Part shown: piece by piece, positions 1 to 13,070 of the stretch
Numbering within the stretch: the first letter of the stretch is position 1
How the letters are laid out: every line of letters begins with the position of its first letter
Virus record (IMG/VR): IMGVR_UViG_2541047681_000003
DNA: 13,070 nucleotides
From: a virus
Lineage: Duplodnaviria; Heunggongvirae; Uroviricota; Caudoviricetes
Direction: 5' to 3' (one strand)
Translations under genes and position numbers: made by a program
Notes under the pieces: generated by a model
The model's input: only the letters and a program-made list of their open reading frames with translations
What the model was told of the DNA's origin: nothing
Database searches by the model: none

Positions 1-705
1 CTGCCGCTGTTTCCGGCGCATGAATGTTATGTGGAGCCGTTTTGTGGGGCAGCAGCGCTCTATTTTCTTAAGGTACCCGGCAAGATCGAAGTCATTAATG
101 ATATCAACGGTGAGCTGGTGAACCTGTATCGGGTGGTAAAACATCATCTGGAAGAATTTGTACGCCAGTTCAAATGGGCGCTGGTCAGCCGGCAGATCTA
201 CAAATGGCTGCAGATCACCCCGGAAGAAACACTGACGGATATCCAGCGTGCAGCACGGTTCTACTACCTTCAGAAGCAGGCGTTTGGGGGCAAGGTGGCG
301 GAGCACAGCTTTGGTACCTCCACCATATCCCCGCCACGCTTCAACCTGCTGCGTATTGAAGAAGAACTGTCAGCGGCACACCTGCGGCTTTCCAGAACGG
401 TCATAGAACACATGGACTGGCAACAGTGCATAGAACGATATGATCGCCCGCATACGTTGTTCTACTGTGACCCTCCATACTGGGGAACGGAAGGTTATGG
501 TGTGGAGTTCGGACTAGAAAATTATGATCATATGGCAGATTTAGCACGCAGGATCAAAGGGAAGATGATTATATCGGTGAACGATATCCCGGAAATGCGG
601 CAGGCATTCAACGGTCTAAATATTCAGTCGGTTGATATCAGCTACAACCTCAAGATCACTGGCAAATCCAGTCGCAAGAAGGAACTCATTATCCTCAACT
701 TTTGA
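1..705 (+). CDS. DNA adenine methyltransferase, Dam-like; 5'-partial, reading frame is open from base 1
   Basis: Frame is open upstream of the GTG at 31 back to base 1. Translation has CYVEPFCGAAA (compare E. coli Dam motif I, LVEPFVGAG as I recall it) and FYCDPPYWG (DPPY motif IV of N6-adenine methyltransferases). Stop codon at 703-705. Confidence 0.8.
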   Translation: MPLFPAHECYVEPFCGAAALYFLKVPGKIEVINDINGELVNLYRVVKHHLEEFVRQFKWALVSRQIYKWLQITPEETLTDIQRAARFYYLQKQAFGGKVAEHSFGTSTISPPRFNLLRIEEELSAAHLRLSRTVIEHMDWQQCIERYDRPHTLFYCDPPYWGTEGYGVEFGLENYDHMADLARRIKGKMIISVNDIPEMRQAFNGLNIQSVDISYNLKITGKSSRKKELIILNF

Positions 706-1900
706 CCGAATAGTAAGACTTCATGCAGTGAATCAAGTACTGCATGAAGTCAAGGGCTGGTTTTGTGTACCAAAAATAAACAGTGATAGCGGTAATAATT
801 CCCATAACTAGAACACCACGTATAATCCAGAACGTACGTTTCTGCGTGTCTAGTCGCGCAGAAATACTGCTAAATACACCAGCCACGTCATCTTTAATGA
901 AGGAATATTCCTTATTAATCTGTTTTTCTTTGTATTCAATTTCTTCGCCTAAGGCCTTTATAGATTGCATCTGGTTCGAAAGTGCCAGCCAGATTAACGT
1001 TGCAGCAAAAATGCATCCCAGAAGAATTATTGTGTTTGTTATCCCTTGGCCTGACCATTTCGTAGCCACTTTGAATTGGGTAGCTACGATAACAGAGGCA
1101 ACAGGAATGCCAAGTATATGGTTCTGGATATCTGAAAACGCTTTGTGGATTTTACCCATTTCTTCGACTTTTGCAGCACGCAGTTGATCCATTACTTTGT
1201 CATAAGAGAATCCAGAAGAGTAGATACGATACCCTTTCAGAAACTTTTCATGCAGACGCTGAATATTGTCCAGTAAATAAGCGAATACTAGAGGTGAATC
1301 AATTCCATCACTAACTGCTTGAATACTTTCAATCAGAATATCTAGCTTCTGATCCTTATGGGTATCATCATTGAAACAAGCTATAAGGTTATCAAGATAC
1401 TCCCTTTGCAAATTTTGTACATTTTCTGCAGCGAAGTGCGGTAATAGCTTGATAACTTCTTTTTTCAGAAAAACTAACTGACAAGTTGAGTTATCAAAGT
1501 AGGCCGCGGCCTCTTTTAGCAGGTTAACGAACTCGAGAATCTTCCGGTAGTTGCTGATGAAAACGGGGATATCTTCATCATCATTACGAAATTTTGTTTC
1601 TAGGATGAAGTAATTAGCTGGCTCAAGGCACTGATGCTTTGGAGCATTTAGCAATTTTTCATGGGTGGAAAACACAAGTCCCAGTCCACTCCGTGGTGAC
1701 GTCACACGTAGGATGATCGTGTTACCTGGAGCGATAGTGCCTGTATCAATAGAAAGACCATATTCACGAGGATCATCAAGCAAAGTATCAACCAGATCAC
1801 AATCGGACTGATCTAAGAGCAACAGCGAACCGACACGAAACCCCTCTTGGAATTCCATACGACGATACAGAGCTGTCAGCATCTCAAATGAAATCGCCAC
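695..1900 (-). CDS. Membrane-anchored protein of unknown function (401 aa); second gene of the leftward repressor-A-B block
   Basis: GTG start at 1900..1898, 2 bp after the TAA of the upstream gene, with GAGG 7 nt upstream. C-terminal hydrophobic stretches GITNTIILLGCIFAATLIWLAL and FWIIRGVLVMGIITAITVYFWY look like TM helices. The N-terminal ~290 aa look soluble with no motif I recognise. Visibly AT-rich. Confidence 0.6.
   Translation of the reverse strand: MAISFEMLTALYRRMEFQEGFRVGSLLLLDQSDCDLVDTLLDDPREYGLSIDTGTIAPGNTIILRVTSPRSGLGLVFSTHEKLLNAPKHQCLEPANYFILETKFRNDDEDIPVFISNYRKILEFVNLLKEAAAYFDNSTCQLVFLKKEVIKLLPHFAAENVQNLQREYLDNLIACFNDDTHKDQKLDILIESIQAVSDGIDSPLVFAYLLDNIQRLHEKFLKGYRIYSSGFSYDKVMDQLRAAKVEEMGKIHKAFSDIQNHILGIPVASVIVATQFKVATKWSGQGITNTIILLGCIFAATLIWLALSNQMQSIKALGEEIEYKEKQINKEYSFIKDDVAGVFSSISARLDTQKRTFWIIRGVLVMGIITAITVYFWYTKPALDFMQYLIHCMKSYYSVKS
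717..751. repeat. Perfect palindrome, 13-bp arms GACTTCATGCAGT / ACTGCATGAAGTC around a 9-nt loop
   Basis: Read directly from the sequence. It sits 12 bp after the methylase stop and inside the last codons of the convergent minus-strand gene 695..1900. Confidence 0.7.
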
Positions 1901-1902
1901 GA

Positions 1903-2910
1903 TTAAACCTCAGTCATCCACATTTCCCTAAATTCTTCAGGTACATTACGTAGGGTGATAATATTTGTTTCCGGATCATAATCAATATAGCCTTCAGTTT
2001 TCCCTTCCCGGTCAAACTTAAGTTCCCAATATTTAGACTTGCCTTTAAAAGATACCAGAGCCCGAATGACTCGACCATCAGGAACGAAGCCATCCGATAA
2101 CTCCAACTCTTCAGCAGCAAGTTTACCAGATAACTCCTCGGGAGCCTGGGGCCAAATGGCATTAACAAGGGTTTCAAGACTAAGTGGTTCACCAGCCTTA
2201 CTTAGTGCATGTAAGTGTTCAAACGCACTCTTAAGAAATGCATCTTTTTCAGCGCCGTCAAGTCCTTTCTCTGCCGCAAATGCTTTTAAAACGTCACGTA
2301 ACTTTTCAGACTCTCGTTTGGCGATTAAGACATCATTACAGCCTAGGAACTGTTTAAAATAGTTTGAAACATTACCTTGCCCCTTAAGAAAACTGATATA
2401 GCGCTCTGCGCCACTTTCCCACGCGGTTAAGTCAATGCGCCCAGCCATACGCAGCTTAGCAATATCAAGATAGGTACTATCTTGGATGTTAAAATCATCT
2501 GTGACAGTGGACCCAATGGTAGCGCTTACAATAGCTATCAACAGGTGTTCATTGTGTCCTATCACGATATTTGCAAAAAGAACATAACCACCAGTAGCCA
2601 TGTTTTCTCGCTGAGAACGTTCCGTCAGGTGATGCATCATTCGGCAGGAACTTTGGTAGAAATCATCAACACCTTCGAGAAAGTCCCCAGCCATTCGTTC
2701 CATAGGATAGTTATCCGTATCGCCTTCAAAATAGCCATAACCTTTACCTGTGCGTCCTGCATATTTTGCACAAATATCGTTTATAAGGCGCTGAGAGGCT
2801 TCAGTAACTAGACCTTCTTCAGGACTCAATCTCTCAGAAGCGTCTCCATTTTGTTGTTTGTCTAAAATGTGAACTACAACGTGTTTAACTTCAATGGTCT
2901 GCTCAGACAT
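1903..2910 (-). CDS. NdpA/YejK-like nucleoid-associated protein homologue (335 aa)
   Basis: ATG at 2910 with AAGGTGG 6 nt upstream. Same length as E. coli YejK (335 aa). Segments GGYVLFA and LRMAGRIDLTAWESGAERYISFLKGQ resemble my recollection of YejK (GGFVLFC; IRMAARIDLTRWEGGEERYLAFIKGR). This is a by-eye match, not a database hit. Confidence 0.55.
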   Translation of the reverse strand: MSEQTIEVKHVVVHILDKQQNGDASERLSPEEGLVTEASQRLINDICAKYAGRTGKGYGYFEGDTDNYPMERMAGDFLEGVDDFYQSSCRMMHHLTERSQRENMATGGYVLFANIVIGHNEHLLIAIVSATIGSTVTDDFNIQDSTYLDIAKLRMAGRIDLTAWESGAERYISFLKGQGNVSNYFKQFLGCNDVLIAKRESEKLRDVLKAFAAEKGLDGAEKDAFLKSAFEHLHALSKAGEPLSLETLVNAIWPQAPEELSGKLAAEELELSDGFVPDGRVIRALVSFKGKSKYWELKFDREGKTEGYIDYDPETNIITLRNVPEEFREMWMTEV

Positions 2911-2980
2911 TGGCTATCCACCTTATTTTTTATTGCTTAATGGCAAATAATTTCTGCTATATGTTCTCGTTAGGAACACA

Positions 2981-3388
2981 TTAACCCACATTTTTTAACC
3001 GCTCAATCGTTGCGGATAATTCCTTCAGTTGTTTTTCCATCTCAATCACACGCTGTTTTTCTTCAGCGCCTCGCATGAGATCTCGCCGAACCTCAGGATC
3101 TAACTGGTTTAGAAGTTCAAGCATTTTAAGGTCTGACGGGCTGAATTGATGTTGTGTTGGTACAGCAACAATTTCTTTAGATGGAATATGTTCTTTACCG
3201 GTAAGTAGCCAATCGATTGATACACCCAAATGGGTACTTAGCGCAACAAGAGCCTCTGCGTTTGGTTCTCTCTCTCCACGCAAATAGTTTTGAAGTGAGC
3301 GATATGGAATTTTTGATAAGTCAGATAATGCCTTTATTGTCATGCCATTAGCATCCATCACTTCACGCAATCTCTCTTTTGTACTCAT
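2981..3388 (-). CDS. XRE-family helix-turn-helix repressor; candidate prophage immunity repressor
   Basis: Start taken at the internal Met (MSTKERLREVMDANGMTIKALSDLSKIPYRSLQNYLRGE...), which gives a typical N-terminal XRE HTH. It is divergent from the early operon and is followed by a C-terminal coiled-coil-like region. The longer ORF-track N-terminus would cover the promoter region and has implausible composition. Confidence 0.75.
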   Translation of the reverse strand: MSTKERLREVMDANGMTIKALSDLSKIPYRSLQNYLRGEREPNAEALVALSTHLGVSIDWLLTGKEHIPSKEIVAVPTQHQFSPSDLKMLELLNQLDPEVRRDLMRGAEEKQRVIEMEKQLKELSATIERLKNVG

Positions 3389-3404
3389 TTGAACATATCT
3401 CAAT

Positions 3405-3432
3405 TTGACACACTCATTTGGGTGTGTACAAT
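3405..3432 (+). promoter_or_regulatory. Sigma70-like early promoter (-35 TTGACA, 16-bp spacer, -10 TACAAT) overlapped by inverted repeat ACACAC-N8-GTGTGT (3408..3427)
   Basis: Hexamers read directly from the sequence in the divergent repressor/ner intergenic region. The 6-bp-arm inverted repeat spans the -35 and spacer. Direct repeat CAATAGA x2 lies at 3429..3444. Confidence 0.55.
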
Positions 3433-3476
3433 AGACCCAATAGAGTACATCATAACCTAACAGGAACACGGTGCAT

Positions 3477-3701
3477 ATGAACAAACAACAAGTTCGGGCA
3501 CGGCTGGTTGAACGAGGCAGTAGCTTGCGCCAGTTCGCGCTTAACGCGGGCTATGAACCACGAACAGTCACCCAGGCAGTCAGTCGCTGGGCTGGTAAAA
3601 GTGAACTACCTCGCGGTCGTTTGACTTATCGGATTTTGCGAGATCTATCGGTTGCAATAGGTAAAGAAGTTACCCCCGGTATCCTTAAGGAGGCGTCATG
3701 A
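3477..3701 (+). CDS. ner: Ner-like DNA-binding protein (Mu Ner / Nlp family)
   Basis: ATG at 3477 with AGGAA upstream. SLRQFALNAGYEPRTVTQAVSRWAGKSE resembles Mu Ner LSALSRQFGYAPTTLANALERHWPKGE. First rightward gene next to the repressor, as in Mu. Confidence 0.7.
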   Translation: MNKQQVRARLVERGSSLRQFALNAGYEPRTVTQAVSRWAGKSELPRGRLTYRILRDLSVAIGKEVTPGILKEAS

Positions 3702-4006
3702 ATAAACCAAATACATCAAGCTCAGGTATCCGTATTTTGCGCGTTCTTAAGGCCTTACGTGGCCACGCTTTGAACGGTGTTTCTAACGGGGAACTAGCGG
3801 TTGCACTGCACGAATCACCGGCAAACATCAACCGGGCACTTAACACGCTCATTGAAGAAGGGTTGGCTCTGAAACTAGAAAACGGGCGTTTCGCACCAGG
3901 CATCCAGTTGCTGCAGATCGCCATGGCCCACAGTAACGAGATGGCACGTGCACAGGATCGCATTAACGAAATCAACCAACGTGTTATTTCAGGTAGTCGT
4001 TTGTAA
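3698..4006 (+). CDS. Winged-helix DNA-binding protein (IclR/MarR-like HTH)
   Basis: ATGA start/stop overlap with ner. IRILRVLKALRG...VSNGELAVALHESPANINRALNTLIEEGLA looks like a winged HTH. Confidence 0.5.
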   Translation: MNKPNTSSSGIRILRVLKALRGHALNGVSNGELAVALHESPANINRALNTLIEEGLALKLENGRFAPGIQLLQIAMAHSNEMARAQDRINEINQRVISGSRL

Positions 4007-4016
4007 GGAGTAATCA

Positions 4017-4928
4017 ATGGGACGCACCAAATCACCGGTTAGCACTGAACTGAACGTCGAGGTACCGCTGTCGGATGATCTCAATGTCAGTCTAAACGCC
4101 ATGACACAGCATCGCATGGAAATCATGCAACAGTTCGGCGATGGTCTGCCTTATGAGCGCGATCGTGTTGTCCATGAGGCACGCTTTTATATGGCACAGA
4201 GCGCTGAGGCCATGCTGGAGGCAGGTAAGCGGCTGATAATCCTTAAGGAAAATGAACCACACGGGGAGTTTATAAAGATTCTTGAAAGTGAGTTGGGGCT
4301 GGCATACCGGACATCTGTGAGAATGATGCAAGCATCGACAAAATACTTATCCCCGGCGCTGAAACCAAATGTGCCAACGTTGGCACATTTGGGAAAAGCC
4401 AAACTTTTCGAATTAATGACAGAAGACGACGAAGAGCTTGCCGAACTGGCCGACGGCGGCACAGTTGCCGGCCTGACGCTTGACGACGTTGATCGCATGT
4501 CAGTACGCGAACTTCGCCAGGCCCTGCGCGAAGCGCGCGAAACCAACGCAGCACAACAGCGCGTACTCGCCGATAAAAATGAAAAAATTGATTCTCTCTC
4601 TACCAGACTGGAAAAGAAATCCCGTATTCAGCTGCCTGAGCCTGATGAGGAGGTTAAGAAGCTGCGGGCGGAAGTGACAGCATTAGCGGTTGAGGCGGAA
4701 TCTGCTATCGCCGTCCGACTGTCCAGCGCTTTTGAGACACTGTGCGCATATTGTGCTGAAAACATGATTGATACTCCCAGAGACTTCATGGCAGGCCTGG
4801 TCTGTCAACTGGAAAGCACAGCGCGTAGCCTGCGCTCCACATTTGACCTGCCGGACGAGCCAACAGGCGATGTCGCGCCTTCATGGCTGACTGAGCCGAC
4901 GCCACAGATTAACGGGCTGGAGGCATAA
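4017..4928 (+). CDS. Hypothetical protein (303 aa), acidic with a coiled-coil-like centre
   Basis: Strong RBS AGGAG 7 nt upstream of the ATG. Same strand and coding compositional style as the early operon. No motif recognised. Confidence 0.6.
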   Translation: MGRTKSPVSTELNVEVPLSDDLNVSLNAMTQHRMEIMQQFGDGLPYERDRVVHEARFYMAQSAEAMLEAGKRLIILKENEPHGEFIKILESELGLAYRTSVRMMQASTKYLSPALKPNVPTLAHLGKAKLFELMTEDDEELAELADGGTVAGLTLDDVDRMSVRELRQALREARETNAAQQRVLADKNEKIDSLSTRLEKKSRIQLPEPDEEVKKLRAEVTALAVEAESAIAVRLSSAFETLCAYCAENMIDTPRDFMAGLVCQLESTARSLRSTFDLPDEPTGDVAPSWLTEPTPQINGLEA

Positions 4929-4931
4929 CCA

Positions 4932-6701
4932 ATGAATGCTGCCCTGACTGAACGACTGGTTTATGTCGCCCGCGCGGCACGTGACGCGGGGCATGGTAAA
5001 CGCGGTGCAATATACGACGCTGCCTGTGCTGAACTTGGCATGTCCCGCGCCACTCTGCTGCGCAGGCTGAAGGAGGTCTCTGTGACTGATAAACGCAAAA
5101 AACGCGCCGATGCCGGGCGCAGCGCCCTGACCCGCGACGAAGCCGCGCTGATATCTGCCACACTGCGTGAGGCCACCCGCAAGAACGGTAAGCGTCTCTA
5201 TTCCATCGCAGATGCAGTGGAAACCCTGCGGGCTAACGGCTTTATCTCCGCAGGCAGAACAGATGAAACCACCGGTGAGTTTTTCCCGTTGTCCGAAGAT
5301 GCCATCAGCCGTGCCCTGCGTAACTATGGCCTGCACCCGGAACAACTGGATGCCCCTGCGCCGCATACCGAAGTGGCCAGTCTGCATCCCAATCACGTCT
5401 GGCAGATTGATGCCTCGCTCTGCACGCTTTACTACCTGAGCAATGGACACAAAGGGCTGCAGGTGATGGACAGCGCGAAATTCTACAAGAACAAGCCCGC
5501 TAACCTTGCCCGTATCGCCAGTGACCGCGTGTGGAGTTATGAGATTACCGACCATGCCAGCGGCTGGATTTACGTTGAGTATGTGACGGGTGCGGAATCC
5601 GGTGAGAACCTGTGTTCTGTGCTTATCAACGCCATGCAGGAGCGTGGCGGCGCAGACGTGCTGCACGGCGTGCCAAAAATACTCTATCTCGACCCCGGCT
5701 CGGCAAACACCGCGGGTATGACGAAAAACATGTGCCGCTCACTGGGCATCGACCTGATAGCGCACAAGCCGCATAACGCCCGCGCCACCGGACAGGTGGA
5801 AAAGGCGCGGGACATTATCGAACGCAAGCTGGAGCCGGGTCTGAAGTTCCGGCCGGTTCACAGTCTGGAAGAACTCAACGCGCTGGCCGCGAAATGGCGC
5901 AGCCACTTTAACGCCACGGCTGTTCACAGCCGCCACGGTAAAACCCGCACGGATATCTGGCTGAAGATTACTGCTGAGCAGCTGAAAAAAGCGCCTTCCG
6001 TTGAGGTATGTCGTGAACTGGCTGTGGCGGCACCAGAACTCCGCAAAGTCACGCCAAAACTTCGTGTCTCGTTCCGGGGCACTGAATTTGACGTATCAAC
6101 GGTACCGGGCGTACTGGTTGGTGAAAAACTGATGATTACCCGTAACCCATGGCGCAGCGATGTGGCACAGGTGGTTCTGACCGGTGAGGACGGCCACGAG
6201 ACGTTCTTCCTGGTCGAAGAGGTCAGAAAGAACGAGTTTGGCTTTGCTGAAGGCGCGGCGGTATTTGGCGAAAGTTACAAAGCCCTGCCGGAAACCCCGG
6301 CACAGATGGCGGCAAAAGAAACTGAAGCGCTGGTTACCGGTACAGACAACGCCGCAGATGCAGCCGCCGCACGCAAGGCGAAGGCGCTGCCGTTCGGCGG
6401 GCGGCTTGACCCGTATAAACATATCGACGACACCACACTTCCGGCCTATATGCCGAAGCGTGGTCAGGCCTCTGACGTACGCGGGCCGCGCACTGAACAA
6501 CGTCCCATGACTCATGTGGAGGCCGCGAAAGCCCTGCGCGATAAGTTCAGCGCCGACGGCCTTACCTGGACGCCGGAACATTACCGCCAGTTAACGGCAC
6601 AGTACCCGGACGGCGTACCGGAAGCCGCACTGGATGAAGTCATGGCCACGCTGACCACACCGGCCAGCAGCAGTGTTATCAGCATTGTTAACGGCAACTG
6701 A
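4932..6701 (+). CDS. DDE transposase, rve/integrase-core type (Mu A-like role)
   Basis: GGAGG RBS. Candidate catalytic triad D160 (HVWQIDAS), D254 (ILYLDPGS), E290 (ATGQVEKARD), with the D-35-E spacing typical of rve-fold transposases. N-terminal HTH-like MSRATLLRRLKE. Confidence 0.85.
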   Translation: MNAALTERLVYVARAARDAGHGKRGAIYDAACAELGMSRATLLRRLKEVSVTDKRKKRADAGRSALTRDEAALISATLREATRKNGKRLYSIADAVETLRANGFISAGRTDETTGEFFPLSEDAISRALRNYGLHPEQLDAPAPHTEVASLHPNHVWQIDASLCTLYYLSNGHKGLQVMDSAKFYKNKPANLARIASDRVWSYEITDHASGWIYVEYVTGAESGENLCSVLINAMQERGGADVLHGVPKILYLDPGSANTAGMTKNMCRSLGIDLIAHKPHNARATGQVEKARDIIERKLEPGLKFRPVHSLEELNALAAKWRSHFNATAVHSRHGKTRTDIWLKITAEQLKKAPSVEVCRELAVAAPELRKVTPKLRVSFRGTEFDVSTVPGVLVGEKLMITRNPWRSDVAQVVLTGEDGHETFFLVEEVRKNEFGFAEGAAVFGESYKALPETPAQMAAKETEALVTGTDNAADAAAARKAKALPFGGRLDPYKHIDDTTLPAYMPKRGQASDVRGPRTEQRPMTHVEAAKALRDKFSADGLTWTPEHYRQLTAQYPDGVPEAALDEVMATLTTPASSSVISIVNGN

Positions 6702-6711
6702 GGAGGGAAAC

Positions 6712-7878
6712 ATGCTGGTACTGAAGCAGCAACTGAAAGAGGCCCGTATTCCACAGGCGGTGGTGGCGAGAGCTGTCGATGTTTCTGAGGCCACGCTGGC
6801 CCAGATTGTGAATCATAACGCGTGGCCCCGCACCAGCCCCGGAGAAGTGCGCCGGCGTCTTGCGTCCTGGCTGGAAAGTCAGGGGATTGATACAACGAAG
6901 AGTTTTGATGCTGTACAGGGCGCGGCCACGCCCCGTACAGCGGGTACCACAGATAAAACGAGCCTCAGTGAGGAAGAGAATATGTTACTCAAAAAACAGG
7001 TGTTATTTCCAGCAACCAAAAAAGCGTTTGGTCTTTTCCGTGACCCGTTCGCCGACGAAGCCATGCAGGGTTCTGATGATGTGTTCACCACCCCGGACAT
7101 TCGCTACGTGCGTGAGGCGCTGTACCAGACAGCCCGTCATGGTGGGTTTATGGCCGTCATCGGTGAGTCCGGTGCGGGTAAATCCACGCTGCGCCGCGAC
7201 CTGACTGAACGTATCAACCGCGAGAATGCGCCGGTAATTGTTATCGAGCCATACATCATCGCTATGGAAGACAACGATGTGAAAGGGAAAACCCTGAAGG
7301 CAGCAGCTATTGCCGAAGCCATTATCAGTACCATCGCACCACTGGAAAGCATCAGACGCAGTCAGGACGCCCGCTTTCGCCAGTTGCATCGCGTCCTGAA
7401 AGACAGCAGCCAGGCGGGGTTCAGCCACGTTCTGGTGATTGAGGAGGCCCACAGTCTGCCCATTCCGACACTGAAACACCTCAAACGCTTTTTTGAGCTG
7501 GAGTCCGGTTTCAAAAAACTGCTGTCCATCGTGCTGATTGGCCAGCCGGAACTGGCGACAAAACTGTCTGAACGCAATATGGAAGTCCGTGAAGTCGTTC
7601 AGCGCTGTGAGGTGGTCGAACTTCTGCCTCTGGACAATAACCTTGAAGAGTTTCTGACGTTCAAACTGCAACGGGCCGGTAAACAACTGACGGACATTAT
7701 GGACGCCAGCGCAGTGGATGCCATACGTGCCCGCCTGAGCAATCCGGGAAGTCATCGTAAAAATATGGTCAGCCTGCTGTATCCGCTGGCCGTCAGTAAC
7801 CTGGTAATAGCCGCCATGAATCTGGCCGCTGAAATCGGGGTTCCACAGGTCAACGCTGACGTTGTCAAAGGGGTTTAA
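6712..7878 (+). CDS. Transposition ATPase, AAA+ (MuB / TniB / TnsC-like)
   Basis: Start at the internal ATG 6712 with AGGAGGG RBS just after the transposase stop. Walker A GESGAGKST, Walker B-like VLVIEEAH, N-terminal HTH-like segment. Confidence 0.8.
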   Translation: MLVLKQQLKEARIPQAVVARAVDVSEATLAQIVNHNAWPRTSPGEVRRRLASWLESQGIDTTKSFDAVQGAATPRTAGTTDKTSLSEEENMLLKKQVLFPATKKAFGLFRDPFADEAMQGSDDVFTTPDIRYVREALYQTARHGGFMAVIGESGAGKSTLRRDLTERINRENAPVIVIEPYIIAMEDNDVKGKTLKAAAIAEAIISTIAPLESIRRSQDARFRQLHRVLKDSSQAGFSHVLVIEEAHSLPIPTLKHLKRFFELESGFKKLLSIVLIGQPELATKLSERNMEVREVVQRCEVVELLPLDNNLEEFLTFKLQRAGKQLTDIMDASAVDAIRARLSNPGSHRKNMVSLLYPLAVSNLVIAAMNLAAEIGVPQVNADVVKGV

Positions 7879-7880
7879 TA

Positions 7881-8150
7881 ATGAAATCCACCACAGGTAT
7901 CAACCAGCAAATCAGCAAAGTGCAGTCAGCCATTATGGCGCTTAAGGCGACGAACACGGATGTACAAAGCATCACCATCAGGGGTAACAAACCTGTCATC
8001 CGCGTTTCCCGGAGTGCGCATTGCATGCGCATGCTTGAGCAGGGAAAGGCCTGTTATCTGTATACCGGTCATGACCACAGGGGACATTTCCGTCAGGGCG
8101 TTTTCGAACTGCACGGCTGTCGCGTCGTGTGGCCGGAATCTTTGTGGTAA
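7881..8150 (+). CDS. Hypothetical small protein (89 aa), Cys/His-rich C-terminal half
   Basis: Starts 2 bp after the ATPase stop. Sits where Mu has kil, but no sequence similarity could be established. Confidence 0.5.
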   Translation: MKSTTGINQQISKVQSAIMALKATNTDVQSITIRGNKPVIRVSRSAHCMRMLEQGKACYLYTGHDHRGHFRQGVFELHGCRVVWPESLW

Positions 8151-8177
8151 TCAGCACAACAGGAGGAGTCATAAAAT

Positions 8178-8708
8178 ATGGCAAAAAGTACAAAAGGGGC
8201 AAAACGTATCAAAGCCGCAGCAGCACTCTGGGTGCCGGGGACACGCGAAGAGGTCATTGAGGGAATCAGACTGCTTGGTGACGCGCAACGTGAACTGGTC
8301 AGGGCTGAAACAGAAATGAATGACACCATTGGCGACATCACTGCACGTTATGCCCCGCTCACCGAGAGCCTGAAAAAACGCATGGCCGAACTGCAGTCCG
8401 GTATCCAGACATGGTGTGAGGCGCACCGTGATGAACTGACCGGCAACGGGAAGGTGAAGTTCGCTAACCTCACCACCGGCGAGGTGCAGTGGCGAAACCG
8501 TCCGCCGTCAGTCAGCATTCGCGGGGCGGATAATGTTATTGAATTACTGAGACGTCTGGGGCTTGAGCGCTTTATTCGTGTAAAGGAGGAAATAAATAAA
8601 GATGCCATTCTGAATGAAAAAGAGGCTGTGAAAAATATTCCCGGTATTACCATAAAAAGTGATATTGAGGATTTTTCAATAATTCCTTTTGAGCAGGATG
8701 TGCAGTAA
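8178..8708 (+). CDS. gam: Host-nuclease inhibitor protein Gam (Mu Gam family)
   Basis: AGGAGGAG RBS. Length and sequence (RLETEMND-like AETEMNDTIGDITARYAP, WCEAHRDELT, SVSIRGADNVIELLRRLGLERFIR, ITIKSDIEDFSIIPFEQ) closely follow Mu Gam as I recall it. Confidence 0.85.
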   Translation: MAKSTKGAKRIKAAAALWVPGTREEVIEGIRLLGDAQRELVRAETEMNDTIGDITARYAPLTESLKKRMAELQSGIQTWCEAHRDELTGNGKVKFANLTTGEVQWRNRPPSVSIRGADNVIELLRRLGLERFIRVKEEINKDAILNEKEAVKNIPGITIKSDIEDFSIIPFEQDVQ

Positions 8709-8750
8709 ACACACCACGTTAATTATTTAATAAAAACATTTTCTTTTTTA

Positions 8751-8787
8751 TTCCGGCGTCAGCGCCGCGGGCTTCTGCACGCCGGAA
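8751..8787. repeat. GC-rich inverted repeat TTCCGGCGT / ACGCCGGAA (9-bp arms, 19-nt loop) in the gam-downstream gap
   Basis: Read directly from the sequence. Preceded by an AT-rich tract, with no T-run after it on either strand. Confidence 0.5.
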
Positions 8788-8805
8788 ACAGAGGAGAATT
8801 AAATT

Positions 8806-9000
8806 ATGATATTTAAATGTATTCAGTGCGAGAGGGATATAACAGCCCTGCGTTTTCACAGCGCCATCGCCGTGATGTCCGGTAAGTATCACATACCTGC
8901 AGTACGTGTCACCCTGGTCTGCCCGTACTGCAGCCAGCATTTTTCGGCGGACGTGCCCGTCATAGAATTCTCCCGCCCTGACAGGGAGGACGCGCAATGA
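8806..9000 (+). CDS. Small zinc-ribbon-like protein (64 aa)
   Basis: GGAG RBS. Two CxxC pairs (CIQC ... CPYC). Confidence 0.5.
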   Translation: MIFKCIQCERDITALRFHSAIAVMSGKYHIPAVRVTLVCPYCSQHFSADVPVIEFSRPDREDAQ

Positions 9001-9269
9001 TTACCCCACAGGAAGCACGACAGCGCACCCGAACTCTTGTTGAACACTATGTCAACGAGTGTGAATGCCGCGACCTCACCGATGTGAAGCACGTCCTGAC
9101 GGCGCTAATCAGCATGGCCACACAGGCCATTGTGGCGACCAACGGAAAGGAGGCTGCCCTGCAGGTACTGATGAACACACTCACCCACACGGCAGAGCAT
9201 GAGGTGCCGTACCGGATGGAAACCACTGCAGAAGGCGGCCTGCACATCACCGTCAGCCGGAAGCACTGA
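8997..9269 (+). CDS. Hypothetical protein (90 aa)
   Basis: ATGA overlap with the upstream stop suggests translational coupling. No motif recognised. Confidence 0.45.
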   Translation: MITPQEARQRTRTLVEHYVNECECRDLTDVKHVLTALISMATQAIVATNGKEAALQVLMNTLTHTAEHEVPYRMETTAEGGLHITVSRKH

Positions 9270-9278
9270 GGGCGCGGC

Positions 9279-9575
9279 ATGACACGAAACACCGAACTCA
9301 CCCGCACCGCCCTCTACCGTCTGGCCCTGCAGCGTTTCGGGCCGGACGCACAGGCCCTGAAACTGACAGAAGAGGCCGCTGAACTGGCGGCCAGTGCTGC
9401 CCGCAATCTGAACGGACAGGGCAGCGAAAGTGACCTCGCGGCAGAGCTGGCAGACGTGGAAATCATGACAGAGCAACTGCGCCTTCAGGGGATGGACCGG
9501 CTGATTGACTTCCACAAACAGAAAAAACTGGAACGTCTGGCTGCACGACTGGGCGTGATTTACACGAACGAGTAA
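9279..9575 (+). CDS. MazG-like nucleotide pyrophosphohydrolase (small all-alpha NTP-PPase)
   Basis: GAGGG RBS. EEAAELAASAARN ... ELADVEIMTEQL fits the E-x2-E ... E-x2-D metal-binding pattern of MazG-like proteins. Confidence 0.5.
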   Translation: MTRNTELTRTALYRLALQRFGPDAQALKLTEEAAELAASAARNLNGQGSESDLAAELADVEIMTEQLRLQGMDRLIDFHKQKKLERLAARLGVIYTNE

Positions 9576-9589
9576 CCGGGAGGCATTCA

Positions 9590-9805
9590 ATGGCTGACAT
9601 ACTCAGGGAAATCACCGCATGGACACTGATTCTTACTGGCCTGGCGACATGCCTCAGTGCGGGGGCAGCCCTGGCTGCCCTGCTGATGCACATAACAACA
9701 CAGTGGTTATGGGAAAAGCTTAAAGCAGCATACAGCCTGAAAGAGCTGTCCGACGCTGTCCGGGCATGGAAACGGCAGAAAAATACCGGAGATACAGAAC
9801 AATGA
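9590..9805 (+). CDS. Small membrane protein (71 aa, one predicted TM helix)
   Basis: GGGAGG RBS. Hydrophobic stretch ITAWTLILTGLATCLSAGAALAALLM. Confidence 0.45.
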   Translation: MADILREITAWTLILTGLATCLSAGAALAALLMHITTQWLWEKLKAAYSLKELSDAVRAWKRQKNTGDTEQ

Positions 9806-10485
9806 CAGACCAGAATAAACACATTGAGAAACTGAAAAAGTTGCTGGCGCTGGCCGCATCCGGCAACCCGCACGAGGCCGCTCTGGCACTGCGCCGAGCC
9901 CGTAAACTGATGGATGTTCACGGCATCACACATTCCGACATTGCTATGAGTGATATTGATGAAACCATCAGTCATTACTGGCCGACAGGCAGTCTCCGTC
10001 CACCGCGCTACATGCTGGGCCTGATGAACATCATCCGCGAGGCATTTGGTGTTAACTCCATCATTCACCCCGGCACGCATCCGTCTGTGGGGTTCTACGG
10101 TAACCGGGAACGAGCGGCACTGGCTGCGTACACCTGGGAAGTGCTGGTCCGCCAGCTGAAAAAGGCGCGTCAGCAGTATATCAGCGCACAGAACAAAAGA
10201 ATAAAAAACGCCACCCGTACCAGCCGTGGAGACCAGTTTGCTGAAGGCTGGGTACTGGCCGTTATCAGTGAAATACAGTCCTTTGCCCTGACCGATGATG
10301 AGCGTGAACTGATGCAACAGTGGCTGGAACATAAATACCCGCAGACGCAAACCACCAGGGCGCGTAAACCGGGAAGAAGCCGCAATGGCGACGCCTCGCG
10401 CTATGCGGGGTTTCGTGAAGGGCAGAACGTCAGACTGCACCGCCCGGTCAGTGGGCAGGAACAACAGAAACTGGAGGCCAGATGA
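9802..10485 (+). CDS. Phage protein with DUF2786-like N-terminal motif (227 aa)
   Basis: Start at internal ATG 9802, overlapping the upstream stop as ATGA. KHIEKLKKLLALAASGNPHEAALALRRARKLMDVHGIT resembles the DUF2786 signature as I recall it. Confidence 0.5.
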   Translation: MTDQNKHIEKLKKLLALAASGNPHEAALALRRARKLMDVHGITHSDIAMSDIDETISHYWPTGSLRPPRYMLGLMNIIREAFGVNSIIHPGTHPSVGFYGNRERAALAAYTWEVLVRQLKKARQQYISAQNKRIKNATRTSRGDQFAEGWVLAVISEIQSFALTDDERELMQQWLEHKYPQTQTTRARKPGRSRNGDASRYAGFREGQNVRLHRPVSGQEQQKLEAR

Positions 10486-10712
10486 TTACGCTATCAGGTA
10501 AAAGCCGGAAATTAAAAGCCTGCCGAATATCTGCCAGATACCTTTTTGCCCGCGCCTTTTTTAAGAACGTCAGGCCGGGGATCACAATTGGTGTTATTGC
10601 CGGACGCGAACAGGTTGAAAAATACATGTCAGGTGCATGGTGGAATAACGACCCTGTCATTGCTGCCCGTAATATTCATATCGAATGGGGAGGTATTCAG
10701 AATGACTACTGA
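10482..10712 (+). CDS. Hypothetical protein (76 aa)
   Basis: ATGA overlap with the upstream gene. Basic N-terminus. No motif recognised. Confidence 0.4.
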   Translation: MITLSGKSRKLKACRISARYLFARAFFKNVRPGITIGVIAGREQVEKYMSGAWWNNDPVIAARNIHIEWGGIQNDY

Positions 10713-10908
10713 AACCATTGTCTGTTTTCTTTTCTGGTATATGTACGCAGGATCATGCAGCGCAAGACTTCATCGTTCCCTGGGCTATGGCAGGCACTAC
10801 GACACCGCGCATTACATCCTGTACATGACCGCCGTCATGTTGTTCTGGCCAGTCACCCTGCCAGCTGCAACCGACATTGTTGCCGACAGACTGAAAAAAA
10901 GGAGATGA
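10702..10908 (+). CDS. Small membrane protein (68 aa)
   Basis: Internal ATG of ORF 10546..10908 with GGGGAGG RBS. Hydrophobic stretches IVCFLFWYMYAG and ILYMTAVMLFWPVTL. Confidence 0.4.
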   Translation: MTTETIVCFLFWYMYAGSCSARLHRSLGYGRHYDTAHYILYMTAVMLFWPVTLPAATDIVADRLKKRR

Positions 10909-10909
10909 T

Positions 10910-11359
10910 ATGCAGAAAAAACGCCTGATACAGCTTATCCATATTGCCCGTAATGAACTGGGTATGGATGAAGACACCTACCGCCAGATGTTACAGGGGC
11001 TGACCGGTAAAGCCTCAACCAAAGGAATGGATACCACACAACTAAACTGCGTGCTGGAATCCATGAAAAAGAAAGGCTTTCGCGTTAAACCAGCCAGAAA
11101 AGCCAGCTCCGGTTTACCGCTGGATAACCATCCGCAGTCCAGGAAAATTCGTGCGCTATGGCTTGAAATGGCTGCTGCCGGCATTGTTCGTGACCGTTCA
11201 GAAAATGCATTAGCGCGGTGGATCAAGCGGGAAACGGGCATCAGCGCCCTGCGCTGGCTCAATACTGAACAGGCAAGCAGTGTTATTGAGAAACTGAAGA
11301 AGTGGCAGCACAGAGCTGCGGGAGTAAAACATGAGCGACCTGAATCAGTTTCGAAGTAA
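10910..11359 (+). CDS. gemA: GemA-like protein (Mu gp16 family)
   Basis: AGGAG RBS. N-terminus KKRLIQLIHIARNELGMDEDTYRQML resembles Mu GemA (KAQLIAKIHIAKKQLNMDDDTYRAML as I recall it). Lies immediately upstream of the Mor-like gene, as in Mu. Confidence 0.65.
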   Translation: MQKKRLIQLIHIARNELGMDEDTYRQMLQGLTGKASTKGMDTTQLNCVLESMKKKGFRVKPARKASSGLPLDNHPQSRKIRALWLEMAAAGIVRDRSENALARWIKRETGISALRWLNTEQASSVIEKLKKWQHRAAGVKHERPESVSK

Positions 11360-11729
11360 AGGGCCGGAACTCCTGGTGGAGCTGGCACAGCATACCTCTG
11401 AGACCGTTCGCGAGATTATTGATATTGAGCCCGCAATTGCCGACCAGATTGGTCAGGCCGTCGCGAACCGAATGATGCAGGTCTGGGGCGGGCAAAACGT
11501 TTATTTCCCGATGGGCATGGTATGGAAGGTCAGTCAGCGCGACCGGGAAATCTTCAGGGAGTTTAACGGACGCAACCACCACGAACTGGCCCGCAAGTTT
11601 GGTGTTTCGCTTCAGTGGGTCTACAGCGTGGTTAAGCGGGTCAGAAAAGAAGAACTGGATCGGATGCAGGGCAGGTTGTTTGATGAAGATCTGCCAGAGG
11701 AGACGAAAGACGTTAACAAATCCAGATAA
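11331..11729 (+). CDS. mor: Mor-like transcriptional activator (Mor/C family)
   Basis: GGGAG RBS. C-terminal HTH region REFNGRNHHELARKFGVSLQWVYSVVKRVR resembles Mu Mor (NDFNGRNVSELTTRYGVTFNTVYKAIRRMR as I recall it). Last gene before the terminator. Confidence 0.7.
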   Translation: MSDLNQFRSKGPELLVELAQHTSETVREIIDIEPAIADQIGQAVANRMMQVWGGQNVYFPMGMVWKVSQRDREIFREFNGRNHHELARKFGVSLQWVYSVVKRVRKEELDRMQGRLFDEDLPEETKDVNKSR

Positions 11730-11771
11730 TTCCTGCTTGTTAAAGTCCTTTCAAAAATCTCCTTATTGTAT

Positions 11772-11805
11772 AAAAGCACGGTAGACCCCTTACCGTGCTT
11801 TTTTT
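11772..11805 (+). terminator. Rho-independent terminator ending the early operon
   Basis: Stem GCACGGTA / TACCGTGC with 7-nt loop GACCCCT, followed by seven T residues, preceded by AAAA. Located 43 bp after the mor stop. Confidence 0.8.
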
Positions 11806-11843
11806 ATGCTCTCTCTTTAGTATTCAGGATGCAGGGAGAAAAT

Positions 11844-12476
11844 ATGTTTGACGTTTCGTTGTTAAATCTGCCATGGGCAACACTGGTGACCCTGACCAGT
11901 GGCTATATTGGGTATTTTATTGCGAATGTGGGACTGAAGGATCACCACAAGCCCATTGAGGTGACTTTTTCTTCGCTGATTTTTGGCCTGACAGCAATGA
12001 TGGCTTACCAGGCTGTTATGTGGGCAGGTCTGAATGCCTGGCTGGCAACACCACCAGCACTTCTGTGTGCCGTTACATGCGGTGCGTGGTGGCGCAGGTA
12101 CGGTCGCAAATGGATGTACAGATTACTGTGGAATAATGATGTTTCATGGTCTGACGATACCAGCTCAGCATGGCAGGCAATGTTTGATCAAACAGGCTTC
12201 AGCGTTACCGAGGTCAGAGTGATTCTTCGCGATGGTTCCGGTATGATGTCACGGCTGCCAGGGAACTTTGAAGAGTGGCCTAACGGTCCGTTTACCCTGG
12301 GGAATAAAGGCGATATGGTTCTTTACGTCACGCACAGCAGCCCTTCAGGCAGTAACGAATGGGAAGAGTATAAAGGCGTGGTTGATAAGTACTGGGGAGC
12401 TCTGGCAACCTATATTCCAGCAGATCAGATTGCCAGAGTGGAGATCAGGCGCGTTCGTGCAACGAACGATGAATGA
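11844..12476 (+). CDS. Membrane protein of unknown function (210 aa): about three N-terminal TM helices plus a soluble C-terminal domain
   Basis: ATG at 11844 with GGGAG RBS. The ORF-track start at 11766 would read through the terminator hairpin. Hydrophobic stretches WATLVTLTSGYIGYFIANVGL, SSLIFGLTAMMAYQAVMWAGL and PALLCAVTCGAWW. Confidence 0.55.
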   Translation: MFDVSLLNLPWATLVTLTSGYIGYFIANVGLKDHHKPIEVTFSSLIFGLTAMMAYQAVMWAGLNAWLATPPALLCAVTCGAWWRRYGRKWMYRLLWNNDVSWSDDTSSAWQAMFDQTGFSVTEVRVILRDGSGMMSRLPGNFEEWPNGPFTLGNKGDMVLYVTHSSPSGSNEWEEYKGVVDKYWGALATYIPADQIARVEIRRVRATNDE

Positions 12477-12720
12477 TGTTTATTTTTTCCCTGGGGCAGG
12501 GGCTGCCGGCATAGTGGTTTTATTGGCAGAGGAAGACGATTCTCCTTTTCTACCGGAATCGCGCTCGAACGTCACGATGTGCTTGCTTTTGGGCTTTTCT
12601 GAGTAATCCAGGCTATCATGCTTATTGTTTTGAGTAGTCATTGGAATCATCCTTTTTGTTGCGGGTCATGTTTCAGCAAACTCGATTCTAAGTTGCCAGG
12701 AAGGATGATTTCAATGCCCG

Positions 12721-12837
12721 ACTTATCTATCGTATAGCGGAAAAGAATTTCAGTTCTGTTCACCAGAACCCATGTTAACCCACTCCAATTCGTTATTTAT
12801 CTCACGGATCCCCCTTCATTTATCTCATGTCTGATCA
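12721..12837. repeat. Terminal non-coding region with direct repeats ATTTATCTCA (12795..12804 and 12818..12827) and a degenerate copy ACTTATCTAT (12721..12730); candidate transposase-binding sites at the element's right end
   Basis: Repeats read directly from the sequence, two perfect copies 23 bp apart. Element-side sequence ends ...TCTGATCA (CA at 12836..12837) next to host kefC-derived sequence. No ORF on either strand between 12607 and 12837. Confidence 0.5.
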
Positions 12838-13070
12838 CTTTGTGGATCGAGTTCGAGGCCGATAATAAACAGCATCAGCACCACGCCAATCTCGGCAAAG
12901 TGCAGAATAGATTCGGCATCGGTCACCAGTCGCAGCCCCCACGGGCCAATAATGCAGCCGGCGATCAGGTAGCCAAGAACCGATCCCAGACCGAGACGTA
13001 CCGCAATGGGAACAATCAGCGCCGCCGAACCGAGATAAATCAGCGCCTGAATAAGCGTATGGCTATCCAT
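12838..13070 (-). pseudogene. kefC: kefC 5' fragment: first ~78 codons of the glutathione-regulated K+ efflux gene, then unrelated sequence and a stop
   Basis: Translation [77 protein letters not shown] matches the E. coli KefC N-terminus as I recall it. The reading then becomes SDQT-stop instead of RLWKL.... Junction uncertainty is about 3 bp. Confidence 0.75.

Follow-up and report, generated by a model that had tools for sequence, protein, structure and literature searches.

A probable BcepMu-type prophage terminus interrupting kefC in Escherichia coli

Positions 12795–12837 of the 13,070-bp stretch of viral DNA analysed here (IMG/VR record IMGVR_UViG_2541047681_000003; hereafter the window) very probably form the terminus on the early side, the counterpart of the BcepMu 'left end', of a transposable, BcepMu-like myovirus prophage of ~37.7 kb that lies in codon ~78 of E. 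coli kefC. The position of this terminus, an inverted far end, 6-bp duplications, varied insertion sites, the homologies of TnpA and TnpB and a conserved site layout were all observed directly. From the conserved position of two terminal sites and their co-occurrence with tnpA, we infer that the transposase binds both. These results locate to the base the edge of a mobile prophage, which here inactivates kefC and in ~2% of complete E. coli genomes occupies many other genes.

The junction with kefC and the opposite end

The last base of the element is the A at 12837, which closes a terminal hexamer, TGATCA, at 12832–12837 on the + strand. Homology among E. coli prophage copies stops at this point, and identity to kefC begins at 12838. 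Across the junction (12780–12850) the + strand reads ccactccaattcgtt ATTTATCTCA cggatcccccttc ATTTATCTCA tgtc TGATCA and then, on the host side, ctttgtggatcg. The 233 bases from 12838 to 13070 match the intact E. coli D8 kefC at 100% identity, are found in 5,423 of 5,426 complete E. coli genomes, and represent the 5′ fragment (~77 codons, – strand) of the gene interrupted by the insertion. Intact kefC reads ...CACAGC CTTTGT GGATCG... through the site where the window turns foreign, and the gene is unbroken across the insertion point in 5,422 of the 5,426 genomes. Because kefC is continuous across this site in the intact gene, the element ends at A 12837 and kefC is disrupted; the truncated reading frame terminates at a TGA (12825–12827) within the outer of the two repeats described below. 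The initial annotation had proposed an element terminus ending in CA and marked by short direct repeats, and the junction bears this out. The contrary outcome that it had named, in which the region would be ordinary intergenic host DNA lying upstream of intact kefC, is not what the genomes contain. Its description of the terminal ~120 bp as non-coding also agrees with RefSeq copies of the element, which have no annotated gene in the final ~197 bp; the nearest open reading frame encodes 53 residues on the reverse strand (12641–12480).

The same terminus is found at many other places. The 198 bp ahead of 12838 recur at full length in 124 of those 5,426 genomes, a set that does not include the source of the window, and they do so at a wide range of genes (rstB, yeiB, mdfA, gcl, fadM, irp1, clbG and others). 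An exact-match scan of metagenome contigs with the terminal 23-mer added 16 junctions whose flanks could be used; counting also four complete genomes and the window, there are 21 independent flanks, all of which differ directly after TGATCA. The flanks show a mild target bias: in 17 of 21 the third position of the duplication is T, and in 17 of 21 the fourth is A or T. This distribution bears on one alternative, that the segment is ordinary host DNA beside kefC carrying a chance repeat. First-order Markov simulations of the window produced a mean of 0.34 exact 10-mer direct repeats at 11–40 bp per 13-kb sequence; such repeats arise by chance in ~29% of random 13-kb sequences, and another one is indeed present in the window, within kefC at 13014. 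Nevertheless, given the uninterrupted kefC of nearly all E. coli genomes and the recurrence of the full-length 198-bp segment in so many different genes, we regard this alternative as refuted.

Four E. coli genomes (ABU 83972, S7, A24 and STIN_95) carry complete sister copies of the prophage, with termini TGATG...TGATCA. Read from the outside inward, their far end is TGATGCGCCGC GCGATAAATG CACTCTATCTTGT GCGATAAATG, whereas the end in the window is TGATCAGACAT GAGATAAATG AAGGGGGATCCGT GAGATAAATA. The far-end layout, TGATGCGCCGC-GCGATAAATG-N13-GCGATAAATG, is thus the inverted counterpart of the window's end and keeps its 11-nt offset and 23-bp register; in both ends the sites lie at nt 12–21 and 35–44. 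Both of the signs that the initial annotation had suggested looking for are therefore present in these sister copies: an inverted copy at the other end (TGATGCGCCGCGCGATAAATG...) and a short target-site duplication, which is 6 bp in 4/4 complete prophages (ATTTGT, CTTTAT, ATTTGC and CCTGAC). From intact kefC and these duplications, the first 6 bp of the host flank in the window, CTTTGT (12838–12843, + strand), are predicted to be one copy of a 6-bp target-site duplication, and a second CTTTGT is predicted just past the opposite boundary of the element, which the window does not reach.

Two sites at a fixed distance from the tip

The 10-mer ATTTATCTCA occurs exactly twice in the window, at 12795–12804 and 12818–12827, as had been noted from the sequence at the outset; the copies are 23 bp apart from start to start, and the window holds no other exact copy. 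Both are on the + strand. The outer copy (12818–12827; TGAGATAAAT when read from the outside inward) has its core at nt 12–20 from the terminus and is a predicted transposase-binding site on the basis of the exact repeat and its conserved position. The inner copy, 23 bp further in, has its core at nt 35–43 and is predicted to be a second such site. Beyond this 9–10-bp core, the two 23-bp units of one end share little sequence. The repeat is meaningful because of its position relative to the tip and its conservation across the family, rather than because of the repetition itself.

This conservation was assessed in a scan that used a TnpA alignment and a single genome for each species; it recovered 80 loci, distributed over Enterobacterales, Burkholderiales, Neisseriales, Pseudomonadales and others. 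The two-site motif was defined by cores matching at ≥8 and ≥7 of 9 positions and a spacing of 22–24 bp. In 52 of the 80 loci it occurs exactly once, in the expected orientation, 3–8 kb downstream of tnpA, and in 52/52 of these a TGA stands exactly 11 nt ahead of it. The opposite orientation, used as a control, gave eight weaker matches in 1.55 Mb, which lack the TGA offset with one exception. That exception (locus L076) is a probable genuine end. A tip that begins TGA when read from the outside inward is invariant across 49/49 non-redundant related ends, and the 3′-CA at 12837 is the predicted cleavage and strand-transfer end.

The family consensus is TGAt..Gg.gT GAGATAAAT N13/14 gaGATAA.T. 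Its core, G(A/C)GATAWWT, occupies the same position in BcepMu L and R, in PhiKM and at the opposite end of the E. coli prophage, and is looser in B3. The layout TGA-N8-G(A/C)GATAWWT-N13/14 followed by the second site is common to BcepMu, B3 (again in looser form) and the window's end. The full signature, TGA-N8-G(A/C)GATAWWT-N13/14-G(A/C)GATAWWT, is a simple locator for ends of BcepMu/B3-type prophages across Proteobacteria. The boundary fixed here also aids prophage annotation, given that RefSeq leaves these ends unmarked and names the transposase only as an 'integrase catalytic domain' protein.

The family comparison does not extend to a third repeat, which the initial annotation had described as a degenerate copy. 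The candidate, ACTTATCTAT at 12721–12730, has three mismatches, and the window contains 86 such matches where 87.9 are expected. No third site at ≥8/9 is present within 300 bp of the window's end; the early end of the close relative PhiKM lacks one; and 49 non-redundant related ends yielded only scattered, position-inconsistent matches within 300 bp, with no conserved third site. The candidate at 12721–12730 was accordingly rejected, and the array reduces to two sites.

The repeats could instead be operators or promoter elements of the inward-facing small open reading frame, or the sites of another regulator. A sigma-70-like promoter (10/12 matches) does face inward at 12714–12685, upstream of the 53-aa frame. 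The repeats lie outside this promoter, however, and their distances from the tip are identical at both ends, although the far end has no such open reading frame. They are also kept in PhiKM, BcepMu and B3, all of which lack the region of the 53-aa frame. We therefore regard a regulatory role of this kind as distinctly unlikely.

Genes of the element and its phage relatives

The genes of the window are those of an early region. A CI-like repressor is encoded on the reverse strand (2981–3484), and the + strand encodes an HTH protein (3698–4006), a DUF3102 protein (4017–4928), a 589-aa rve/DDE transposase, TnpA (4932–6701; Pfam rve; phrog_310 transposase, E = 1e-148), an AAA+ (ExeA-like) transposition ATPase, TnpB (6712–7878; Pfam AAA_22, E = 4e-20; phrog_296 'DNA transposition protein', E = 2e-93; 'ExeA family' in RefSeq), and Gam (8178–8708). 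Toward the end, the order is repressor, HTH, DUF3102, TnpA, AAA+, Gam, GemA-like and Mor. From this order and its Pfam match (Mor, E = 1e-43), mor (11331–11729, + strand) is the last conserved early gene and is transcribed toward the 12837 end. The + strand genes from 3698 to 11729 all head in that direction, so that the early operon has the reverse orientation to that of Mu. Across the early region from this end are the genes for a Mu-like head and a P2-like tail, and that of a Gin-type invertase.

The complete E. coli copies (ABU 83972, S7, A24 and STIN_95) are ~37.7–39 kb long. They carry lysis genes, a terminase, a portal, a Mu-like head, a P2-like contractile tail, an invertible tail-fibre segment and a Gin-type invertase, and sheath, tube, tape-measure, baseplate and tail-fibre genes also lie between their two ends. 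The genome plan is of the B3/BcepMu type, and B3-like phages have been described as having an inverted early operon and transposition proteins unlike those of Mu (PMC5977238).

The closest deposited phage is Escherichia phage PhiKM (PQ738613), which is classified as a Bcepmuvirus. PhiKM, KP12 and Phi06_2974 B share 86–95% nucleotide identity with window positions 1–11689. The TnpA of the window is 93.5–98.6% identical to those of PhiKM (98.6%) and Phi06_2974 B, and ~94% identical to that of Klebsiella phage KP12. The PhiKM early end reads TGATTAGACTT GAGATAAATG N13 GAGATATTTA. These three phages differ from the window in lacking the cargo at 11730–12700 and in having another subterminal sequence, in which canonical TGGGA repeats are kept; of the deposited records, that of KP12 has lost ~50 bp from each end through trimming and that of PhiKM is incomplete. 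In the PhiKM record, a fragment of a host ABC-permease gene adjoins the early end. The fragment may be host DNA carried along in packaging, a hint of replicative transposition, or may result from misassembly. Bcepmuvirus-type prophages have been reported in the literature from E. coli ST131 and from human gut isolates.

More distantly, the TnpA of the window is 68.5–69.4% identical to those of the Bcepmuvirus phages BcepMu (NC_005882; 68.5% to gp09) and phiE255, and 56.6% identical to the A protein of Pseudomonas phage B3, with the BcepMu and B3 alignments covering ≥98% of the length. BcepMu and phiE255 share with the window's element an ExeA-like AAA+ partner, an early operon that runs toward the nearest end with Mor last, TGA...TCA termini, and two sites per end at nt 12–20 and 35–43 in a 23-bp register. 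From the outside inward, BcepMu L reads TGAAGAGAGGT GAGATATTTC N13 GCGATATTTC and BcepMu R reads TGAAGCGCGGC GCGATATTTC N13 GCGATAAATT. The differences are several. The element here has E. coli as its host; it begins with TGATCAGACAT over the terminal 11 nt, where BcepMu has TGAAGAGAGGT; its core has AAAT in place of what is mostly ATTT; ~950 bp of extra cargo separate Mor from the end; its phased GGGA repeats are degenerate; and at its far end a Gin-type invertase with an invertible tail-fibre segment takes the place of the BcepMu acyltransferase.

Phage B3 (Beetrevirus) resembles the window's element in its TnpA, its inverted early operon, its TG-starting ends and its sites at nt 12 and 34/35. 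Unlike that element, it is a siphovirus with different late genes, and its site cores (GAGAAATAC, GCGAAATTT and GCAATAAAT) are more degenerate. From the outside inward, B3 L reads TGAGAGAGAGT GAGAAATACC N13 GCGATAAAGT, in which only the inner site reaches 8/9, and B3 R reads TGTAGCGCGGC GCGAAATTTG N12 GCAATAAATG, in which both sites reach 8/9 at a 22-bp spacing.

The gene content and the phage relatives also bear on whether the terminus could belong to a simple Tn552- or Tn7-like transposon, or to a genomic island, and not to a phage. Tn552 has two directly repeated ~23-bp transposase sites per end, an AAA+ partner and 6–7-bp duplications, and the window has both the same arrangement of two directly repeated sites and an rve/Tn552-like transposase beside an AAA+ partner. 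However, Tn552 is a small staphylococcal resistance transposon and not a phage, and the likeness to it is one of general description. The ends of the complete copies, moreover, enclose a full set of phage morphogenesis genes, and the relatives PhiKM, KP12, BcepMu and phiE255 were isolated as phage particles. A non-phage element is therefore extremely improbable. The BcepMu transposase has itself been placed in the Tn552/IS1604 rve group (BcepMu annotation; PMC2628397), and BcepMu-like prophages have been described as having 5′-TG...CA-3′ termini and a Tn552-related Rve transposase (PMC2628397). In BcepMu and phiE255, imperfect direct repeats of 23 bp that lie at the ends were proposed as recognition sites of the Rve transposase (PMC2920897). 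The end type is thus already described, and the element here is an E. coli member of it, with no new mechanism.

Relation to Mu, proposed transposition and the subterminal region

The initial annotation had likened this terminus to those of Mu-type and other DDE transposons, and the rve/DDE TnpA with its AAA+ partner, the inverted far end and the short duplication in the sister copies support that general comparison. Its further suggestion of a distinct end type holds in a limited sense relative to the MuA type, from which the element differs in its rve-only transposase, the lack of an hhalign match to MuA and its 6-bp duplication; the end is not new, however, in that the type is known from BcepMu and phiE255 (PMC2920897, PMC2628397), and the Mu right end is similar.

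With respect to the transposase, Pfam finds only an rve domain in TnpA, whereas MuA has DDE_2, HTH_Tnp_Mu_1, HTH_Tnp_Mu_2 and Mu-transpos_C, none of which is present in TnpA. Profile comparison gave no sign of homology between TnpA and MuA: hhalign with 4- and 30-sequence profiles returned probabilities of 0.1–0.4%. A profile search of the PDB with TnpA gave no match to MuA or TnsB, and only marginal matches to retroviral integrase cores (best E = 3e-4). At a broader level, MuA and TnpA both match phrog_310, and MuB and the window's AAA+ protein both match phrog_296.

With respect to the ends, both phages have TG...CA termini and contiguous sites in a ~22-bp register that begin a few nucleotides from the tip. 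The Mu right end (AF083977) reads TGAAGCGGCGC ACGAAAAACG CGAAAGCGTTTC ACGATAAATG, and so carries TGAAGCGGCGC-ACGAAAAAC...ACGATAAATG in nearly the same register as the window's phage. Its tip (TGAAGCGGCGCACGAAAAACG) matches the far end of that phage at 16 of the first 21 nt. The Mu right end also has a nearly identical inner core, shifted by one base in register, and Mu R2 contains ACGATAAATG. On the other side, Mu has three sites per end (L1–L3 and R1–R3) whereas two were found at the window's end, early genes are oriented oppositely in Mu and in the window's element, and the Mu target duplication is 5 bp whereas that of the window's element type is 6 bp in 4/4 complete copies.

These comparisons allow us to weigh the possibility of a classical Mu-type (Muvirus) end, with repeats that serve to bind MuA. 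Gam, Mor, GemA, the head genes and the Gin-type invertase of the element are Mu-like, and the right-end similarity and the shared phrog_310 match point the same way. The domain content of TnpA, its hhalign probability of <1% against MuA, the 6-bp duplication, the inverted early operon and the missing third site all argue against it and largely refute it, and we consider a Muvirus end very improbable. The resemblance of the ends may reflect either shared ancestry of an end-recognition module or convergence.

Under a BcepMu-type assignment, a pathway can be drawn by analogy with what is established for Mu and Tn552. TnpA (4932–6701) would bind two sites per end, each with the core G(A/C)GATAWWT, at nt 12–20 and 35–43 in a 23-bp register. 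The ends would then be synapsed by TnpA and nicked at the terminal 3′-CA. TnpB (6712–7878), predicted to be a target-DNA activator analogous to MuB, would supply target DNA, and TnpA would join the ends to it across a 6-bp stagger. Repair or replication would leave a 6-bp duplication, with the insertion sites close to random apart from a mild preference in sequence, and a replicative form of the same reaction would copy the genome during lytic growth. Both the chemistry of these steps and the part assigned to TnpB are modelled on the better-known systems. The phased G-runs inside the inner site are probably part of a packaging or architectural region.

In related early ends, the sequence just inside the inner site contains 2–5 GGGA motifs that are 9–11 bp apart, with a spacing peak at 10–11 bp. 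At least two GGGA motifs are found in nt 45–90 in 94% of 48 non-redundant family early ends, compared with 0.3% of background (interior) windows, and the array is absent from 4/4 late ends examined. The phased pattern is also present in B3 L and at the Mu left end, the part of Mu to which pac maps. By comparison with that region, the G-runs may have a packaging or architectural role at the early end. The window's own end has no GGGA in nt 45–90. In their place, helically phased but degenerate G-runs (TGGAG, TGGGT and TGGGT, respectively 52, 57 and 67 nt from the terminus) lie on the – strand at 12763–12793, with the motifs at 12769–12786. Because canonical GGGA repeats are missing, the packaging competence of this end is uncertain.

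A broader evolutionary reading is possible but tentative, and we think it rather less likely than not: Mu and the BcepMu/B3-type phages may share an ancestral end design in spite of transposases that look unrelated by sequence. The shared design would comprise a TGA tip, two sites in a ~22/23-bp register, a CGAWAAAT-like core and phased GGGA on the early (packaging) side only. The GGGA array would then be a pac or architectural element of the whole group, and the E. coli lineage a variant in which cargo insertion eroded it.

The cargo between Mor and the end amounts to ~950 bp and was not found in PhiKM or KP12. It contains a 210-aa open reading frame (11844–12476; phrog_12870) and the inward-facing 53-aa frame on the – strand (phrog_15726). 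An Rfam search of 11700–13070 returned only sub-threshold noise. One terminator-like hairpin is present on the reverse strand at 12770–12752, where 0.6 are expected. The promoter of the 53-aa frame is accompanied by a 16-bp inverted repeat in which both the Shine-Dalgarno sequence and the start codon of this frame would be base-paired.

Repeats and target preference at the early end

The early ends of this family, that is, the termini near the tnpA-to-mor operon, carry helically phased GGGA repeats, spaced 9–11 bp apart and lying directly interior to the inner predicted transposase site. We counted these repeats in the region 45–90 nt from each terminus among the early ends of the related loci found with the TnpA alignment (L011–L090). 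At least two copies of GGGA were present in 94% of 48 non-redundant family early ends, versus 0.3% of background windows. Phased GGGA repeats also occur in the left ends of phages B3 and Mu, and the window has a degenerate version at 12763–12793. They were not found in the four late ends examined. The array is probably a pac site or an architectural element.

Insertions of this E. coli element show a bias in target choice. Of 21 independent insertions, 17 have T at position 3 of the 6-bp duplicated target, and 17 have A or T at position 4. The sample comprised 16 metagenome contig flanks (L097–L112), four complete genomes (L001 and L006–L008) and the window itself (12838–12843).

The terminal 21 nt of Mu's right end agree with the far end of the ABU 83972 prophage (L002, ~18230–18266) at 16/21 positions. 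The sequence ACGATAAATG lies within Mu R2, its register shifted by one base relative to the inner site. Despite this likeness of the ends, hhalign detected no sequence similarity between MuA and the E. coli prophage transposase.

Cargo and possible cargo genes of the element

The interval between mor and the terminus holds two cargo ORFs, one of 210 aa (11844–12476, plus strand; phrog_12870) and an inward-facing one of 53 aa (12641–12480, minus strand; phrog_15726). Neither has a match in Pfam or PADLOC, and both are absent from PhiKM, KP12 and BcepMu. A reverse-strand sigma-70-like promoter (TTGAAA-18-TAGAAT) lies at 12714–12685, and a reverse-strand inverted repeat at 12639–12716 has 16-nt arms that are 94% complementary and a 46-nt loop. 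Its predicted RNA fold has an energy of −22.9 kcal/mol (z = −2.4), and the upstream, anti-Shine-Dalgarno arm would pair with the 53-aa ORF's ATG and Shine-Dalgarno sequence. The inverted repeat may provide translational control of this small cargo gene.

A second gene pair, with the repressor on one side and a truncated ORF for a Dam-type methylase on the other, encodes a 401-aa protein (695–1900, minus strand) with a weak match to KwaA of the Kiwa defence system (E = 8e-5) and an adjoining 335-aa NA37 nucleoid-associated protein (1903–2910, minus strand). The region at the same position in ABU 83972 differs from that in the window. The pair may represent anti-phage or accessory cargo.

End sequences in deposited records and at other sites

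In the PhiKM record (L005, 20200–20577), part of a host permease of an Fe2+ ABC transporter directly abuts the early end; it is either an assembly chimera or packaged host DNA, as would be expected of a transposable phage. In the KP12 record, ~50 bp have been trimmed from each end and the predicted binding sites are missing.

The kefC coding sequence itself contains another exact direct repeat of a 10-mer, AATCAGCGCC, at 13014–13023 and 13038–13047 (24 bp apart), which shows that repeats of this kind turn up by chance at the scale of the window.

An orphan ~145-bp copy of the phage end lies on plasmid p1 of E. coli 181.1 (L092, 4001–4144). Such copies, next to remnants of IS1 and IS3, recur on many plasmids of ~190 kb, most of which come from poultry isolates, and occupy about 105 plasmid places. 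The orphan is 89.7% identical to the end in the window, keeps both repeat cores intact and lacks the terminal 9 nt; it is presumably the dead relic of an old insertion.

In Oceanospirillum beijerinckii (L076, ~3969–4015), a well-formed end-like motif, TGTAGGGCCGC GAGATATTTC N12 GAGATAATTG, is found 6 kb upstream of tnpA and points the opposite way; an adjacent element, or a truncated one, may end there.
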